A program made the position numbers and the translations under genes. From Campylobacterales bacterium (GTDB taxonomy: Bacteria > Campylobacterota > Campylobacteria > Campylobacterales > Sulfurimonadaceae): a DNA stretch of 64,000 nucleotides. The stretch lies in NCBI GenBank assembly GCA_016938175.1, contig JAFGVE010000017.1:344-64343 (forward strand). The letters run 5' to 3'. Of this stretch, positions 388 through 64,000 are shown one piece after another (position 1 is the first letter of the stretch; the number at the start of each line of letters is the position of its first letter). Below the pieces are notes generated by a model, which worked only from the letters and a program-made list of their open reading frames with translations, was not told the origin of the DNA and made no database searches.

Positions 388-843
388 ATGCACACATATC
401 AAATAGCCTCTTCCGTTTTAGACGGATATAGAAACGAAAAACTCACTCAAGAGAGACTCGATTTTTTATTTGCTCAAGTAGATGAACAACTTGAAGAGTT
501 AGCTACAAAACCAGACTATTACGCTACGTTTTTAGAGCGTGCAAATGTCCCAGAAGGCATTGATAAAATTCTTAAATGGATACTTATTATGTCTAATGAG
601 TCTATATGTGAAGACTATATAGACGAGTACAGAAAAAACTACAGAGAGATAATTCCCGTAAGTGACCTAGGTGACCTTCTTGTATACGCTGTGCACCTCA
701 AAAAAGTTAAAAACACTCCACCTGAAGGTTTTGATTATCTTTTAGAGATAAATTCTGCAGGTGTAGAGGAAGTAGACCAGTACGCTTTTACAAATGTTCT
801 GCTTTATATTCAAAAATCTAAAGAAGTGGAGATGGAGTTTTAA
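388..843 (+). CDS. hypothetical protein (151 aa)
   Basis: Clean ORF with ATG after a purine-rich stretch. It is tightly followed by the next gene. No family recognised. Confidence 0.6.
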   Translation: MHTYQIASSVLDGYRNEKLTQERLDFLFAQVDEQLEELATKPDYYATFLERANVPEGIDKILKWILIMSNESICEDYIDEYRKNYREIIPVSDLGDLLVYAVHLKKVKNTPPEGFDYLLEINSAGVEEVDQYAFTNVLLYIQKSKEVEMEF

Positions 844-858
844 TGCTACAATAGCATC

Positions 859-2514
859 ATGCTAGAAATTTTTTCAATACTCTTAACACTTATTCTTATT
901 TCAAAATACATAGAAGATAGGACAAAAGTCTCTTTTGTTCTCATCATCATTGTCTTAGCGTATGTAAGTAGTTCATTTTTCAATCTCTCTTTACTCAAAG
1001 AGAATTTTCACTCTATTATCTACTTGATGCTTCCTATCATTCTTATTCCCGATGTTTTAGGTCTTTCGTCAAATGAGTTAAAAGAAAATAAATCAAGTAT
1101 ATTTTTTCTCTCGGTTATAGCAGTATTTGCTTCCATAGCCTTAGCTGTTGGAATAAGCTATTTTTCAAACTATTTTGAAACGCTCTCTTTAGCCTATCTA
1201 CTTCTTCTTTTTACGCCCCTTATGGCGACAGACGTTGTCTCTGTAGGTGCTATATTTACAAAATTCAATCTCCCTTCACACTTAAAACTTTATGCAGAGG
1301 GAGAGAGTCTCTTTAATGACATTACCGCTATGGTACTCTTCTTTTTTATCGCTCTGCCACTAGCTCATGGAGATGATATACTCATTTCATCTTTAATGAC
1401 ACTCACTCTGAGCACTGTTTTTTTCTCACTTGTTTTGGGTCTTGGATTTGGTTTTTTAGGCTACTTTACGTTTAATAATTCAAGAGATAATTTAGAAGAG
1501 TTCATTACAGTCTATTTAATGGCTTCTTTCTCTTTTTTACTTGCTGAACATTTTAAGCTTTCGGGAATTCTTTCAGTTATAGTCTCCGTCATTGCATTTA
1601 AGTACTTTTTTAACCAGGCAGGACACTATAAAAAAAGAAATATTTTTGCCGCCTATCTCCACCTTAACAAAAAAAGCAACGCTACTCTCTCGTTAAGAGC
1701 CTATATAAAAGAGTCTCACTATCTCGGTTTTTTTGCCAATGCAGTCATCTTTACCTCTATAGCAACTGTTATAGACTTAGAACTGCTTTTTCGCTACAAA
1801 TACGAAATACTTTATGTTTTTGTACTGACAACAGCCATTCGTTATCTTATGATGTTTCTTTTTATCAACTACAAAAAACATCCTTTACACTGGACAAATA
1901 TACTAACCCTCTCTGGTATGAAAGGAGGTTTGGCACTTATTATGGTTATCTCCCTTGGCGATGATTTTCTCTACAAAGAGATGTTTGTTACAACGACACT
2001 TGGCGTTGTCATACTCTCAATTTTTGTCAATACCTTCTTTCTTATGCTCTACCTCCATTTTAACAAAGAGCACCTTCTTTTAGATAAAGCGGATGAGCAT
2101 CATATTGCTATAAGTGATGTTAAAGAGATATTTCAAAAAGAGCCACTTACAAAAGCGTATAACGAAATCATCTTTGAAGATTTGATAGAGAATGAGATAG
2201 AACGTGCAAGCAGATATAATCAACAGTTTGTTATTGTAGCATTTCATGCCACTAGTACAACAGCCCATGCAGTTGGTTCTTCTATGGTTAGAAAGGGTGA
2301 CTATTTTGGTAAATTAGATGCCTATACATACGCTATTTTAATGCCTCATACATCTCTAGAGGACATTTTAGGATTTTCCCAAAGATTGGAGTTAGCAACA
2401 AACAACGCCAGTTTATCTATCGCCCAATATATGCCAAACGATACAAAAGAGCTCATTTACGAAAAACTCTTCAGCGGCTTTGCACACAAAAACAAAATCG
2501 CTATAGAGATATAA
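859..2514 (+). CDS. CPA1-type cation/proton antiporter fused to a degenerate GGDEF-like C-terminal domain
   Basis: Polytopic N-terminal ~400 aa has NhaP-like motifs ATDVVSVGAIF and EGESLFNDITAMVLF. The C-terminus (EPLTKAYNEIIFEDLIENEIERASRYNQQFVIVAF ... RKGDYFGKLDAYTYAILMP) follows the GGDEF-domain pattern, but GGDEF is replaced by DAYTY. Confidence 0.75.
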   Translation: MLEIFSILLTLILISKYIEDRTKVSFVLIIIVLAYVSSSFFNLSLLKENFHSIIYLMLPIILIPDVLGLSSNELKENKSSIFFLSVIAVFASIALAVGISYFSNYFETLSLAYLLLLFTPLMATDVVSVGAIFTKFNLPSHLKLYAEGESLFNDITAMVLFFFIALPLAHGDDILISSLMTLTLSTVFFSLVLGLGFGFLGYFTFNNSRDNLEEFITVYLMASFSFLLAEHFKLSGILSVIVSVIAFKYFFNQAGHYKKRNIFAAYLHLNKKSNATLSLRAYIKESHYLGFFANAVIFTSIATVIDLELLFRYKYEILYVFVLTTAIRYLMMFLFINYKKHPLHWTNILTLSGMKGGLALIMVISLGDDFLYKEMFVTTTLGVVILSIFVNTFFLMLYLHFNKEHLLLDKADEHHIAISDVKEIFQKEPLTKAYNEIIFEDLIENEIERASRYNQQFVIVAFHATSTTAHAVGSSMVRKGDYFGKLDAYTYAILMPHTSLEDILGFSQRLELATNNASLSIAQYMPNDTKELIYEKLFSGFAHKNKIAIEI

Positions 2515-2567
2515 GCATTGCTTTGCTACTATTTTGCTTTTAAAATACTCTAAGCGAGCAAAAAACC

Positions 2568-4523
2568 ATGGCACTCATCGACCTGCAAAATATCTCTAAA
2601 CACTACTCTGCACAACAGATACTCACTGAGATTAATTTTCATGTAGATGAGGGTGAACGCATAGTTATCATTGGTAAAAACGGGAGTGGAAAGTCTACTC
2701 TTATGAAAATTGTCAATGGAACCCTAGAGCATGATGGCGGTCGTCGTATAACGCAAAACGACCTAGAAATAAAAATGCTTGACCAACGTCCACAATTTGT
2801 AGATGGACACAATGTACGTCAAGCGGTTGAACATGGACTCAAAGAGTTAAACGCCGCAAAAGAGCGTTACAATGAGCTCTCTTTACTCTTAGCAGAAGAC
2901 TTTGAAAACAAATTACTACTTGATGAACACGAAAAACTCTCACGTTATATAGAACATCACAATGCTTGGAATTTAGATGATAAGATAGAACGTATAATCC
3001 AACACTTTGATTTAAAACGCTATGAAGACAAACCTATTGCACTCTTAAGTGGTGGAGAACAGCGTCGTGTTGCCCTAGCCTCCCTTCTTCTTCAAAAACC
3101 AGATGTTTTACTTCTTGATGAACCTACAAACCACCTTGACGTTTATATGGTTGAGTTCTTAGAAGAGTTGCTGTTAAAAGAGAAGTTTACTCTTGTTTTT
3201 ATCTCGCATGACAGATATTTTATAGATAGAGTTGCGACAAAATCTATAGAGGTTGAAGACTGTGCTCTACGTGAATATAGCGGTGGATATTCAAACTACC
3301 TTACACAAAAAGAGGAGTATCTCAGAACGCTACAAAAACAGCATGAAAATCTTCTGAGTGTACTCAAAAGAGAAAATGAGTGGTTTGCAAGAGGCGTACG
3401 TGCAAGACTCAAAAGAAATGAGGGAAGAAAAGAGCGTCTTATGCAACTTCGTGAAGATGCAAAAACAAACCCTGCAAAAATTCGTAAAATGTCGGTAGAG
3501 TTACAGCGTGAAGCGAAACACTTTAACCGTGACAAAAGTATTAACAAACAAAAAATGCTCTTTGAAATTGAAAACCTCAGTTTAAAACTTGGTGAGAAAG
3601 AGCTTCTAAAAAACTTTACAACACGTATACTTCAAAAAGATGTTATCGCTATAGTCGGACCAAACGGAAGCGGAAAATCTACTCTACTAAAGACTCTTTT
3701 AGGAAGAATAGAACCAACCAGCGGAGTTATCAAACGTGGTGAGTTTAAAGTCGGATATTTTGACCAGCATAGAGAGATGCTCGATGATGATAAAAATCTC
3801 ATAGAGACATTTTGTCCAAATGGTGGAGACAGAGTAAATGTACGTGGAAGTGACCTGCATGTTTATGGTTATCTGAAGAACTTTCTTTTTCCTCGTGAAT
3901 TTTTAGATAAAAAAGTTGGTGTACTCAGCGGTGGAGAGAAAAACCGTGTGGCACTTGCCCTGCTCTTTACTAAGAATGTAGATATCCTCATTCTCGATGA
4001 GCCGACAAATGACCTTGATATTCCAACAATTAATATTCTAGAAGAGCAACTAACAAACTTTGCAGGAGCTGTTATTATTGTAAGTCACGATAGATATTTT
4101 GTGGATAAAATTGCCAAAAAACTCTTTATTTTTAAAACAGATAAAACCATAGAAGAGTCACATCAGCAATACAGCGAATACCTTGAACTTGAAAAAGAGT
4201 TACAAGAACTAGACAGTATGGAAAGTGAAGCAAACGCGAGCCTGCAAAAACCTAAAGAGCCTCTGGAGAGTAAAGAGAAACCAAAAGTACTCAAACTTAC
4301 TTACAAAGAGAAAATAGCTCTTGAAAAGCTCCCTATAGAGATAGAAGAGCTAGAGGCAAAAATTGCGGAGAAAAATGAGTGCCTTTCAAACCCAAAATGT
4401 TATGAAGAGATAGGTTTAAGTGTTCTTGCAAAAGAGTTAGCTGAGTTAGAAGCTCTATGCGAAGAGAAGATTGAAGAGTTGTTTGCTATTGAAGAAAAAG
4501 TTGAAGAGATAGAAAATAGCTAA
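2568..4523 (+). CDS. ABC-F family ATPase (Uup/YheS-like, two ABC cassettes, no membrane domain)
   Basis: Two Walker A motifs (GKNGSGKST, GPNGSGKST), two signature motifs (LSGGEQRR, LSGGEKNR), an inter-domain linker and a charged coiled-coil C-terminus. Confidence 0.9.
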   Translation: MALIDLQNISKHYSAQQILTEINFHVDEGERIVIIGKNGSGKSTLMKIVNGTLEHDGGRRITQNDLEIKMLDQRPQFVDGHNVRQAVEHGLKELNAAKERYNELSLLLAEDFENKLLLDEHEKLSRYIEHHNAWNLDDKIERIIQHFDLKRYEDKPIALLSGGEQRRVALASLLLQKPDVLLLDEPTNHLDVYMVEFLEELLLKEKFTLVFISHDRYFIDRVATKSIEVEDCALREYSGGYSNYLTQKEEYLRTLQKQHENLLSVLKRENEWFARGVRARLKRNEGRKERLMQLREDAKTNPAKIRKMSVELQREAKHFNRDKSINKQKMLFEIENLSLKLGEKELLKNFTTRILQKDVIAIVGPNGSGKSTLLKTLLGRIEPTSGVIKRGEFKVGYFDQHREMLDDDKNLIETFCPNGGDRVNVRGSDLHVYGYLKNFLFPREFLDKKVGVLSGGEKNRVALALLFTKNVDILILDEPTNDLDIPTINILEEQLTNFAGAVIIVSHDRYFVDKIAKKLFIFKTDKTIEESHQQYSEYLELEKELQELDSMESEANASLQKPKEPLESKEKPKVLKLTYKEKIALEKLPIEIEELEAKIAEKNECLSNPKCYEEIGLSVLAKELAELEALCEEKIEELFAIEEKVEEIENS

Positions 4524-60660: not shown

Positions 60661-61218
60661 ATGTCGACACCACTCATTATACTTATTGTTGTAGTTATTG
60701 TACTTATACTTATGTACAACTCACTTGTAGGTAAGAAAAACCAAGTTGAAAATATCTTCGCAAGTGTTGATACACAACTCAAAAAACGCTATGACCTCAT
60801 ACCAAACTTAGTTGCCTCAGTAAGTAAATATATGGAGCATGAAAAATCAACTCTCGAAGAGGTGACAAAACTACGTGCAGATGCAAATAAACCAAATATA
60901 TCAGATGAGCAAAAAATTGCTTTAGATGCGAAAATAACTTCTGCTCTTGGTTCTATAATGATTGCTGTTGAAAACTATCCTGAACTCAAAGCCAACCAAA
61001 ATGTTATGCATCTCCAACACTCATTAAATGAGATTGAGGAGCAAATTTCCGCTGCAAGACGTGCTTATAACCAAGCAGTTACGGACTACAACAACGCTAT
61101 TGAAATGATTCCCACAAACTTTATGGCAACAGCTATGAATTACAAACGCAAAGCTGTTTTTGAAATCAGTGAAGGTGAGAGACAAAACGTTAATGTTAAA
61201 GAGCTTTTTAACGCATAA
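60661..61218 (+). CDS. lemA: LemA family protein
   Basis: N-terminal TM, then YNSLV..KNQVE, RYDLIPNLV, YPELKAN and ARRAYNQAV.YNN. Confidence 0.9.
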   Translation: MSTPLIILIVVVIVLILMYNSLVGKKNQVENIFASVDTQLKKRYDLIPNLVASVSKYMEHEKSTLEEVTKLRADANKPNISDEQKIALDAKITSALGSIMIAVENYPELKANQNVMHLQHSLNEIEEQISAARRAYNQAVTDYNNAIEMIPTNFMATAMNYKRKAVFEISEGERQNVNVKELFNA

Positions 61219-61223
61219 ACTCC

Positions 61224-62186
61224 ATGATAAGCAGTAGCGAACTTACAGACTTTTACTATAAAGAGCTTCATGCCACTCTACAAGAGCTTGAAAAAGAGCG
61301 TGAGGATTTAAAGTATCGTATTATCATTATAGGTGTTATTTACACCGTTATTGCACTGCTTATAGTACTTTCTGTCTTGAGCATGCAAGCCTCGCTTGAT
61401 GCTATTATTTTTATTGGATTTGCTTACTTTGGCATTGGAGGGTTTCTCTATAAACTCCTCACAAAAAATTACGCTGCAAACTTTAAAGACAAGGTCATCT
61501 CTCCTCTCATCAAAGCGATAGATAAAAATTTAAATTATGATTCACATCGACACATAGACCCTCTACACTTCAAGCGTTCAAAGCTCTTTACCTCTGAACC
61601 AGACAGAGTAAGAGGCAATGACTACGTTTATGGGCATATTGACTCCATTTCCATTCAATTTTCGGACTTTCATGCTGAAAAAAAACACAAAGACTCCAAA
61701 GGAAGAACTACTTGGAGTACTATCTTCCAAGGACTTTTTATAGTCTCTGAGTTTAACAAAAACTTTCACGGAACTACAGTAGTGCTACCTGACACAGCGC
61801 AAAGCACATTCGGAGACCTGATAGGAAACTTTTTACAGTCTAAAAATGCGATGCGACAAGAGCTTGTGAAGATGGATGATGTTGAGTTTGAAAGAGAGTT
61901 TGTAGTCTACTCTTCAGACCAAGTAGAAGCACGCTACATACTCACACATACACTGATGAAGAGACTACTCAACTACAAAAAAAGAACAGGAGAAGATGTC
62001 CTTGTCTCCTTTACAAGTAAAAACATCAACATCGCCATAGCCTATAACAAAGACCTCTTTGAGCCTTCTGTCTTTCACTCGCTTTTGAAGTACAAGGTTG
62101 CTATGGAATATGTACAAACACTCCACCTTGCAACTGGCATAGTAGAAGAGCTAAAGCTAAATAAAAAGCTTTGGAGTAAATTGTAA
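61224..62186 (+). CDS. membrane protein, DUF3137-like (family name from memory)
   Basis: 320 aa with two TM segments after a short N-terminal helix. It sits 5 nt after lemA, a commonly seen pairing. Confidence 0.6.
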   Translation: MISSSELTDFYYKELHATLQELEKEREDLKYRIIIIGVIYTVIALLIVLSVLSMQASLDAIIFIGFAYFGIGGFLYKLLTKNYAANFKDKVISPLIKAIDKNLNYDSHRHIDPLHFKRSKLFTSEPDRVRGNDYVYGHIDSISIQFSDFHAEKKHKDSKGRTTWSTIFQGLFIVSEFNKNFHGTTVVLPDTAQSTFGDLIGNFLQSKNAMRQELVKMDDVEFEREFVVYSSDQVEARYILTHTLMKRLLNYKKRTGEDVLVSFTSKNINIAIAYNKDLFEPSVFHSLLKYKVAMEYVQTLHLATGIVEELKLNKKLWSKL

Positions 62187-62197
62187 TCTAAAAAGTA

Positions 62198-62494
62198 CTA
62201 TTTACAAAACTTACATTTTTTAAGATTTTTCACTGTAGAAATGTTTCTTGAAAACTCTTTAGAGCATTTTGCACATCTAAAGCGAACTTGTTTTAGCCAT
62301 CGCCTGCCATCTTTGGATCTTTTACGATAAATGATTTCAAATCCGTTAATGACATCTCCTACGGAATATGTGCATCTTGCGGGATTATTAATATTTGATT
62401 CAAGCTCTTTGGTGTTTTGGATTTTTTTCAGCTTCCAAGATGGAAGTTCATCTTCTTCAAATTCTTCAATATCAATAGTGTATTTATCAGTCAT
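62198..62494 (-). CDS. small basic zinc-ribbon-like protein, unknown function
   Basis: 98 aa with an acidic N-terminus and a C-terminal Cys cluster (CAKCSKEF...CKFC) plus an upstream Cys. No family recognised. It lies downstream of intI on the same strand after a 230-bp gap. Confidence 0.5.
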   Translation of the reverse strand: MTDKYTIDIEEFEEDELPSWKLKKIQNTKELESNINNPARCTYSVGDVINGFEIIYRKRSKDGRRWLKQVRFRCAKCSKEFSRNISTVKNLKKCKFCK

Positions 62495-62724
62495 AATTTT
62501 TTATCAAACTCGTAGCATCATTTTTCTAATACGATGTAGAAGCATTTTAATGCTAATTTTCATATAGCTTGTTTCTTGAAACTTCAAACTGTTCTCCTTT
62601 GTTAGCATTCTCCCATAAAAAATAAAGCATCTTTATATATTTTGCAGATTGTCATAATTTGTCTTATGTTTAGAGTAGGACTAGTTATTAAATATTTTAT
62701 TGAAGATAAGTAATGCATTAACTC

Positions 62725-63687
62725 TTAAAAATCTAAAGGACTAATGACTTTAGATTTGTTCATCTCTGCAACTACATGTGTATATATCATAGTAGTTTCA
62801 ACACTTTTATGCCCTAGTAATTCCTGTATACTTCGCAAATCTATTCCTGCTTGAAGTAGATGGGTTGCATAAGAGTGTCGAAAAATGTGTGAAGTCACTC
62901 TTTTGTCTATATTTGATTTTGCAACAGCACTCTTTATGTTTCTGCTTAAAGTGGCATCTAAAATATGATGCCGTCTTTTTTCACCGCTTCTTGGATCGGT
63001 TGAAATTTTTTCCATAGGAAAAACATACTGCCATTTCGTCTCATATTTTGAACTAGGATACTTTCGTTCTAATGCATAAGGTATATACACACTTCCATAT
63101 CCATCTTCTAGATCCTTTTTATGAAGCTCTTTGACTTTTTTTACTTGGACTTTTAGTTCATCTTTTATTTTCAATGGTAGCGGTACGGTTCTGTCTTTTA
63201 AAGACTTACTATCCCATATATAAACTTTATCAAAACCAAAGTCTATATCTTTTATACGTATGTTCTGCACTTCACTCATTCTAAGTCCGCATCCGTACAT
63301 AAGATTAAGCATAAGTTGATAAATTCCTTTCATGTTAGCAATGATGTTGTGAACTTCTTCTTTAGTTAAAACTACAGGAATGTGCTTTCTCTGTTGAGCT
63401 CTAAGAGCCTGAATGTTTTGATCTTTTAAAGATATGTCTAAAACTTGCTCATATAGGAATAGAAGAGCATTAAAAGCTTGGTTCTGTGTTGTTGGACTAA
63501 CTTTTAGTTTTGTAGCTAAATGGGTTAAGAACTGTTCAATTTCCAGTTTTTCCATATCTTTAGGGTGTCTTTTGTTATGAAAAAAAATATACCTCTTAGC
63601 CCAGCCTATATAACTTTGTTCTGTTTTTATACTGTAATGTTTAAATCGTATTTTGTCTCTCATGATATCAAGTAATTTCTTTGCCAT
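62725..63687 (-). CDS. intI: integron integrase (IntI-type tyrosine recombinase)
   Basis: 320 aa colinear by eye with IntI1: [66 protein letters not shown] (R-K-H-R-H-Y catalytic set). It carries the IntI-specific insertion [20 protein letters not shown]....[21 protein letters not shown] upstream. Confidence 0.92.
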
Positions 63688-63966
63688 GACTCACTCCTGA
63701 TATATTTAACATTTTGCTAAACTATTACGATTTTCGCTTGATATCTTTACTAATTGATAAGATATTACAGATATACCTTAATAGTTATACATAAAAATGA
63801 TACAAAAATCTTTAAAAAATATTAAAAATTATTGCAATTTGTCATATTTTTACATCACTTTTCCTTACTATACGAATTTAACACAACTTAATAGTATTAC
63901 ACTATAAATGATGAGATATTAAGTAGTTATATAGCTAAACTATATATAATGTAGTACTAATAAATA

Positions 63967-63999
63967 GTTGTACGTTCCCGCGGAGCGGAAACGTACAAC
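63967..63999. repeat. GC-rich inverted repeat/hairpin truncated by window end (attI/attC-related site, terminator or repeat unit; undetermined)
   Basis: GTTGTACGTT (63967-63976) is the exact reverse complement of AACGTACAAC (63990-63999). The centre CCCGCGGAGCGGA adds CCGC/GCGG pairs around a GGA loop, with one C-A mismatch. Confidence 0.85.
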
Positions 64000-64000
64000 G

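Follow-up and report, generated by a model that had tools for sequence, protein, structure and literature searches.

The right end of a 64,000-nucleotide stretch of a Campylobacterales genome (contig JAFGVE010000017.1; this whole stretch is called the window hereafter) encodes a tyrosine recombinase next to housekeeping genes. The locus raises the question of whether this gene belongs to an integron and, in that case, where the attachment site lies and in which direction the cassettes are to be found. We consider it highly likely that the right end of the window is a chromosomal integron platform in a Sulfurimonas-like Campylobacterales MAG, composed of intI on the minus strand, a regulatory and attI region of 279 nt, a crossover at 63967-63969 and the start of a first cassette that is gene-less. 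The features of the locus are listed below, with the slash marking the recombination boundary.

62725 to 63687, minus strand: intI, intact, encoding an integron integrase of 320 aa (ORF list, TIGR02249, Pfam, alignment to PDB 2A3V)
63688 to 63966, no strand assigned: intI-attI intergenic region of 279 nt (blastn conservation among relatives, aligned upstream sequences)
63945 to 63950, plus strand: candidate Pc -10 box TATAAT, 16 nt ahead of the crossover and directed into the cassettes (conservation)
63959 to 63969, plus strand: attI core AATAAATA/GTT (conserved in 63 loci)
63967 to 63999, plus strand: palindrome of 33 nt, GTTGTACGTTCCCGCGGAGCGGAAACGTACAAC, opening of the gene-less cassette 1 (nhmmer profile, metagenome junctions)

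The integrase and its chromosomal setting

The intI gene is preceded by the ribosome-binding site AGGAG, located 6 nt ahead of the ATG. The protein contains the Pfam domains Phage_integrase and Phage_int_SAM_4 and matches the NCBIfam model TIGR02249 (integron integrase) with 411.9 bits (cutoff 265), in a single stretch covering the model positions 1 to 313 of 315. The profiles XerA, XerD and XerC yield 153, 140 and 135 bits, respectively, against cutoffs of 220-335 (around 330 for XerD and XerC), and each of them matches as two separate pieces whereas TIGR02249 matches in one. Being below the cutoffs of the three Xer profiles, the protein is not, by profile, a chromosome dimer resolvase of the XerC/XerD type. 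The class 1 equivalog NF011946 is colinear with the protein over positions 15-328 of 337, though its score of 282.2 bits is under the cutoff of 435. An exact look-up of the IntI sequence retrieved no record.

Among the solved structures, the best match is the Vibrio cholerae integrase IntIA (VchIntIA, PDB 2A3V; E=5.8e-82). Residues 6-318 of IntI pair with residues 6-317 of VchIntIA, and the sole gaps are of one residue each, near positions 91 and 195 of the query, both outside the segment specific to integron integrases. This segment (residues ~205-241) is aligned without gap, residue for residue, with that of VchIntIA. The catalytic positions read from the alignment are Arg136, Lys161, His267, Arg270, His293 and Tyr302. 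All six are kept and correspond to Arg135, Lys160, His267, Arg270, His293 and Tyr302 of VchIntIA (numbers counted from the printed alignment), which we take to be the catalytic residues of the latter enzyme. By these comparisons the protein is a true integron integrase, neither a Xer protein nor a phage integrase, and not a member of class 1.

The remainder of the window is chromosomal housekeeping DNA with a G+C content of ~35%, including genes for MetE, pyruvate kinase, GatB, MutS2, an ABC-F protein, transporters and a hybrid kinase. The independent Logan assembly of the run SRR13394436 contains a contig of 7.6 kb that is 100% identical to the window over positions 61000-63634, reaches upstream through MutS2 and ends inside intI. 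Because this assembly is identical across the join, intI is physically linked to the housekeeping genes and the join is no binning or assembly artefact. The preliminary description had proposed a full-length integron integrase, colinear with class 1 IntI, keeping the catalytic residues and the extra IntI segment and placed in an otherwise housekeeping, chromosomal context. All of these points hold, and every motif that it quoted is present in the protein.

Between intI and a DUF3137/LemA gene pair, an ORF of 98 aa (62198-62494, minus strand) displays zinc-ribbon-like cysteines (CxxC...CxxC). This ORF has no match in Pfam or PADLOC, and no homologue was found beside intI in the best 80 of the 267 related loci described below. 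Its only exact copy is in the Logan contig of the same sample.

Related loci in the Campylobacterota

One scan of species-representative genomes recovered 267 stretches encoding relatives of IntI. The best 80 of these 267 relatives are 67-91% identical to the window protein and come without exception from Campylobacterota, namely from Arcobacteraceae, Sulfurimonas, Sulfurovum, Sulfuricurvum, Nitratifractor and symbionts. At the DNA level (blastn), the similarity between the window and the relatives is 71-83%, extends from the intI stop codon (~62725) to positions 63969-63977 and is found nowhere else. The genes LemA, DUF3137 and the 98-aa ORF adjoin intI in none of these 80 loci, and the array-distal side of intI is never syntenic. 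Since the DNA similarity is confined in this way and no locus shares the neighbouring genes, the conserved module comprises intI and attI alone, placed in differing chromosomal neighbourhoods.

The GatB protein of the window has its nearest named relatives in Sulfurimonas (86-87%), while IntI is nearer to Arcobacteraceae (80-86%) than to most Sulfurimonas MAGs (73-81%). Together with the non-syntenic array-distal side, this hints that the intI-attI module has moved horizontally between families.

The statement of the preliminary description that integrons are not commonly reported in this bacterial group does not stand. Besides the 267 related loci, Campylobacterota figure among the integron-bearing phyla in a 2021 review (PMC8618304), and IntegronFinder results have already been published for Sulfurimonas autotrophica (In0 and CALIN) and Sulfurovum NBC37-1 (CALIN) (PMC10295459); the group is not named in the main IntegronFinder paper. 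The locus of the window is an unremarkable representative of an integron lineage found widely among relatives of Sulfurimonas, Sulfurovum and Arcobacter.

The attI site and the intI-attI region

The intergenic region 63688-63966 is expected to contain the intI promoter together with the sites at which IntI binds attI. When read in the cassette orientation, which is the plus strand of the window, the upstream sequences of 63 loci have in common the consensus tataatgttc.tt.AATAAATA/GTT, situated 240-303 nt from the ATG of intI. Directly past GTT, the sequence differs between lineages in these 63 loci. The attI site was placed at AATAAATA/GTT because the similarity among the relatives stops there and the sequences diverge immediately after GTT; such a boundary is characteristic of an attI recombination junction. 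The crossover G/TT corresponds to positions 63967-63969 of the window.

The hexamer TATAAT at 63945-63950 is a candidate -10 box of the cassette promoter Pc, proposed from its conservation and position. In 33 of the 63 loci the exact hexamer stands at one constant distance ahead of the crossover, and in 57 a TAnnnT-like hexamer does. A sigma-70 scan, which also requires a -35 match, did not pick up this hexamer, having found no -35 match, and the scan does not rise above chance in such an AT-rich region.

The same region contains an imperfect palindrome, TATTGCAATTTGTCATA (63830-63846), located ~145-160 nt upstream of the intI ATG. Its counterpart is perfect, ATATTACA-N3-TGTAATAT, in the loci L008, L009 and L010. 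This palindrome may be an operator regulating intI; to our knowledge, it does not resemble LexA boxes.

Cassette arrays and attC sites in the related loci

A first attC finder, based on AAC...GTT flanking a hairpin of strong minimum free energy, returned no sites, since its thresholds excluded AT-rich sites whose unpaired spacers are large. Repeat finding followed by a covariance model took its place. Repeat finding in Arcobacter iocasae (L007, complete genome) and in the loci L002 and L003 revealed spaced copies of an element of ~68 nt upstream of intI. In the cassette orientation, this attC is xxATAAC-AAATCAGNG-GAGCC..stem..CCC-TGC-GGG..stem..GGCTC-ATTTTAAAC-GTTAxx, where the stems vary in a compensatory manner.

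The covariance model was built on 15 sites and used to search the window and 85 loci (~1.0 Mb, both strands, E<=1e-5). The search detected 71 attC sites in 24 loci, and every one of the 71 lies upstream of intI on the cassette strand; no site was found in the flanks downstream of intI in the 85 loci, nor in positions 1-64000 of the window. In the alignment of the 71 sites, which is fitted to the covariance model and so favours the structure, 14 of the 23 base pairs show changes on both sides. In the same alignment the covariation score is 0.234 versus 0.103 in shuffles, and none of 500 shuffles reaches 0.234; slid registers score much lower. In the arrays of the relatives, the 10 kb retrieved upstream of intI yielded about 1-13 attC sites. 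Real cassette arrays, directed away from intI, accompany this IntI lineage.

As far as the window goes, its array points rightwards, since attI lies to the right of intI, the first cassette starts at 63968 and the attC sites of the relatives are all upstream of intI. The direction is the one foreseen in the preliminary description for a chromosomal integron, and the divergence that it expected between intI and its attI and array is found as well, with intI on the minus strand and the attI core on the plus strand at 63959-63969.

In one metagenome contig with exactly the attI junction of the window (L084), the region 663-3406 comprises two ORFs that follow a gene-less unit of the kind described in the next section, with no canonical attC detected between them. 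One of these ORFs encodes a defence-associated reverse transcriptase (PADLOC RT_UG36, 467 bits; Pfam RVT_1), and the other, an upstream partner of 296 aa, displays a weak likeness to RT_UG35. By the RT_UG36 match and the RT_UG35-like partner that come after the gene-less unit, the array of this integron related to that of the window includes an anti-phage system of the DRT type.

The gene-less cassette family

Cassette 1 begins at position 63968 and is cut by the end of the window at 64000. The 34 nt beyond the crossover represent the opening of an attC-bearing unit, without a complete attC or cassette. An nhmmer profile of the gene-less unit matches positions 63967-64000 with an E-value of 4.4e-7. 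Palindromes of the same kind are found directly at the attI crossover in L004, L029, L030, L048, L057, L061 and L062. A search with the exact pattern of the palindrome stem across the related loci gave no matches, since the stems covary.

A metagenome scan with the last 42 nt of the window recovered five contigs that carry the identical junction. None of them comes from the same organism, and where the overlap is measurable, their attI region shares 79-90% identity with the window. The three of these five contigs with enough sequence (L083, L084, L086) continue with the palindrome, a long attC-like hairpin, G/TTA and then ORF cassettes.

In L029, L062 and L084, a unit of ~176-190 nt is present twice per array, with one copy after attI and the other after a canonical attC, and each copy ends in ...G/TTA. 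The positions of the copies, together with the one of L014, are as follows.

L029: 571-758 and 1980-2168
L062: 5293-5479 and 9551-9738
L084: 419-607 and 3476-3664
L014: 9553-9712

Across the data set, the length of the gene-less unit is ~160-190 nt, and it is made of a perfect palindrome of 29-33 nt and a long attC-like three-way hairpin. Its layout is, in order, TTxxxx, a palindromic linker of ~17-19 nt, xxxxAAC, a perfect stem of ~13-14 bp, ~125 nt with two to three hairpins, the complementary stem and a final G. The copy of the window opens with TTGTAC, followed by a palindromic linker of 19 nt. Full copies are flanked by G/TT on both sides and follow either attI or a canonical attC. The leading TTxxxx of a unit always complements its own xxxxAAC, and both covary across lineages (GTACAAC, TTACAAC, GTGCAAC, GATCAAC, AGATAAC and others), as expected if the two segments together form a single attC R box once the cassette is circular.

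A second sequence family with the same architecture opens with GTTATCTCGGACGCTGCGCGTCCGAGATAAC-GGCGCCGCGGGCTGAAC... It occupies the first position in L014, L015, L021, L043, L053, L065 and L073, and is internal in L002, L017, L046, L053 and L073. Taken together, the two families come first after attI in 14 of the ~59 genome loci with a judgeable junction (about a quarter).

In all 12 full units, the fold of the bottom strand is more stable than that of the top strand by 3-15 kcal/mol, as is known of attC sites. For the unit of L029, the values are -55.7 kcal/mol (bottom) and -41.0 kcal/mol (top), with z-scores of -10.8 and -6.9, respectively. The stem predicted beside AAC/GTT is of ~17 bp and perfect, with no bulge, and shows neither an unpaired central spacer nor evident extrahelical bases. 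For this reason the long hairpin is termed attC-like and is not filed as a canonical attC; its recognition by IntI is inferred from the boundaries of the unit. In L049, a long hairpin without palindrome follows an ordinary ORF and has an unpaired spacer of 5/7 nt; it is the only ORF-serving copy in the data set. On the strength of this copy, the long hairpin can act as the attC of a cassette, and an "empty" cassette is the best reading of the unit.

Several other identities of the unit were considered. Rfam contains no family matching the window at gathering thresholds and gives only chance-level matches for the unit of L004. Rfam offers no support for reading the GC-rich hairpins as the terminal part of a group IIC-attC intron or as another known RNA, and no intron features are seen. 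An IS1111-attC or bridge-RNA-like element was rejected as well, the unit being bounded by G/TT like a cassette and associated with no recombinase gene. An ORF of 15 codons after AGGAG in L029 is not conserved in L062 or L083, so a micro-ORF was discarded. No sigma-70-like promoter was found inside the gene-less unit.

Two units have internal rearrangements. The first-position unit of a Sulfurovum MAG (L053, 434-630) contains a tandem duplication of ~55 nt, with GCAACCAATGTGAAAGTAAACTTTCCCATCGGCTGTCGCTTAC present twice, and the unit of L086 has a deletion of ~60 nt between GGCAGG repeats. From these two cases, the unit seems to be prone either to slippage or to assembly error.

The gene-less palindromic cassette family is the one mildly novel element of the locus, which is otherwise of a known kind. 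A more far-reaching proposal, to which we give tentative and limited credence, is that the unit is more than an empty cassette: a conserved attC-only element of Campylobacterota integrons, mobilised by IntI and existing as two families of the same architecture. It would fold as a rod or dumbbell when single-stranded, duplicate in arrays and prefer the attI-proximal slot. Such an element might be a minimal selfish cassette, or else a regulatory module, acting for instance as a 5' hairpin on the Pc transcript, or separating intI from the array as an insulator or terminator.

Proposed functioning of the locus and alternative explanations

Applied to the locus, the mechanism is that of established integron biology. 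IntI would recombine the folded bottom strand of the attC of a cassette with the double-stranded attI at G/TT, so that new cassettes would be inserted immediately to the right of 63967. Transcription of the cassettes would start at a promoter within attI and proceed rightwards; the hexamer TATAAT at 63945-63950 is the candidate for this promoter. Cassette 1 would be a member of the gene-less family, whose copies recur inside arrays and often come first in related integrons. Past position 64000, ORF-bearing cassettes very probably follow, as in the relatives.

A decayed or In0-like integron, in which the integrase and attI would be followed only by a remnant palindrome or by a single empty cassette, appears unlikely. 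The lack of an attC in a window that extends only 34 nt past the crossover would agree with it, as would the In0 call made by IntegronFinder in Sulfurimonas autotrophica (PMC10295459) and the many related contigs that end within a few hundred bases of intI. However, intI is intact with all its catalytic residues, and every related locus with enough sequence past the same unit (L029, L062, L083 and L084) has attC-bearing ORF cassettes. The interrupted contigs are themselves expected of a repeated element, because repeats break short-read assemblies: eight contigs break inside the gene-less unit, and the window likewise stops 34 nt into it.

We judge it similarly improbable that the terminal palindrome is a stand-alone regulatory hairpin, that is, an intrinsic terminator shielding intI from the transcription of the array, or a repeat of the REP/MITE type. 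On the minus strand, a scan describes it as terminator-like, with a stem of 15 bp followed by TATTTATTAG, which is attI sequence; it is GC-rich within AT-rich DNA, and the palindrome is more stable on the bottom strand in 15 of 19 copies. Against this, every full copy continues with the same long hairpin and a second G/TT, which makes the palindrome the left end of a cassette-sized unit. The internal copies lead into minus-strand sequence that is not T-rich, so the terminator context exists only at attI, for first-position copies, and in the ~1 Mb searched the unit is found only in arrays upstream of intI. At the first position, the palindrome may have a secondary role as a terminator.

A Xer-type (XerC/XerD/XerH) or phage/ICE integrase resembling IntI, with the palindrome as a dif-like or att site, would account for the common tyrosine-recombinase fold and motifs and for the partial Xer matches, but is extremely improbable given Xer scores of 135-153 bits in two pieces (cutoffs 220-335) versus 412 bits in one piece for the integron model, the presence of the IntI-specific insertion, and the relatives of 67-91% identity that adjoin attC arrays in at least 24 loci.

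As a chromosomal integron platform, the locus of the window adds one more representative to a lineage already found in hundreds of Campylobacterota genomes; any cassettes with new functions would lie outside the window sequence. The map obtained for this lineage (attI core, crossover, candidate Pc and model of the 68-nt attC) allows precise annotation in MAGs, whose assemblies are commonly interrupted at the array. The recurrent gene-less cassette directly after attI lends itself to simple tests of two questions: how small can a mobile integron unit be, and do non-coding cassettes regulate arrays outside Vibrio?

Comparison with known systems

The closest known counterparts are VchIntIA (IntI4, PDB 2A3V) and the sedentary chromosomal integrons of Vibrio, Xanthomonas and Shewanella. 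The likeness concerns the colinear integrase of 320 aa with its RKHRHY residues and IntI-specific insertion, the divergent orientation of intI relative to attI and the array, the chromosomal setting and the mutual resemblance of the attC sites within one array, as seen here in the relatives. The window IntI, however, has diverged considerably from VchIntIA and is part of a lineage specific to Campylobacterota. The arrays of the relatives are short to medium (about 1-13 detected attC per 10 kb fetched), and unlike a vertically fixed superintegron, the array-distal side of intI is non-syntenic in all of the best 80 of the 267 loci. With class 1 integrons, the locus shares the colinearity of the integrase to IntI1 (NF011946, positions 15-328 of 337), but the score of 282 bits is under 435, and the locus has no Tn402, qacEdelta1 or sul1 context and no visible resistance genes.

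Long attC sites such as the Vibrio VCR have a branched variable terminal structure. The gene-less unit is similar to the VCR in exceeding 120 nt, in its bottom-strand folding bias and in its branched inner structure. It differs by the perfect stem of ~17 bp beside AAC/GTT with no obvious unpaired spacer, and by the single copy, that of L049, which serves an ORF.

Gene-less cassettes of ~450-650 bp, mostly bearing promoters, are known in Vibrio (PMC11014356), and ORF-less cassettes, many of them promoter-active, in oral Treponema integrons (PMC6557892). The unit described here resembles the gene-less cassettes of Vibrionaceae and Treponema in being bounded by recombination sites, in having no plausible ORF and in its location inside arrays. 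Whereas the Vibrio and Treponema cassettes are of several hundred bp, the present unit is ~160-190 nt long and almost entirely hairpin, with no sigma-70-like promoter found. Unlike them, it also forms two sequence families distributed across several genera and comes first after attI in roughly one locus out of four.
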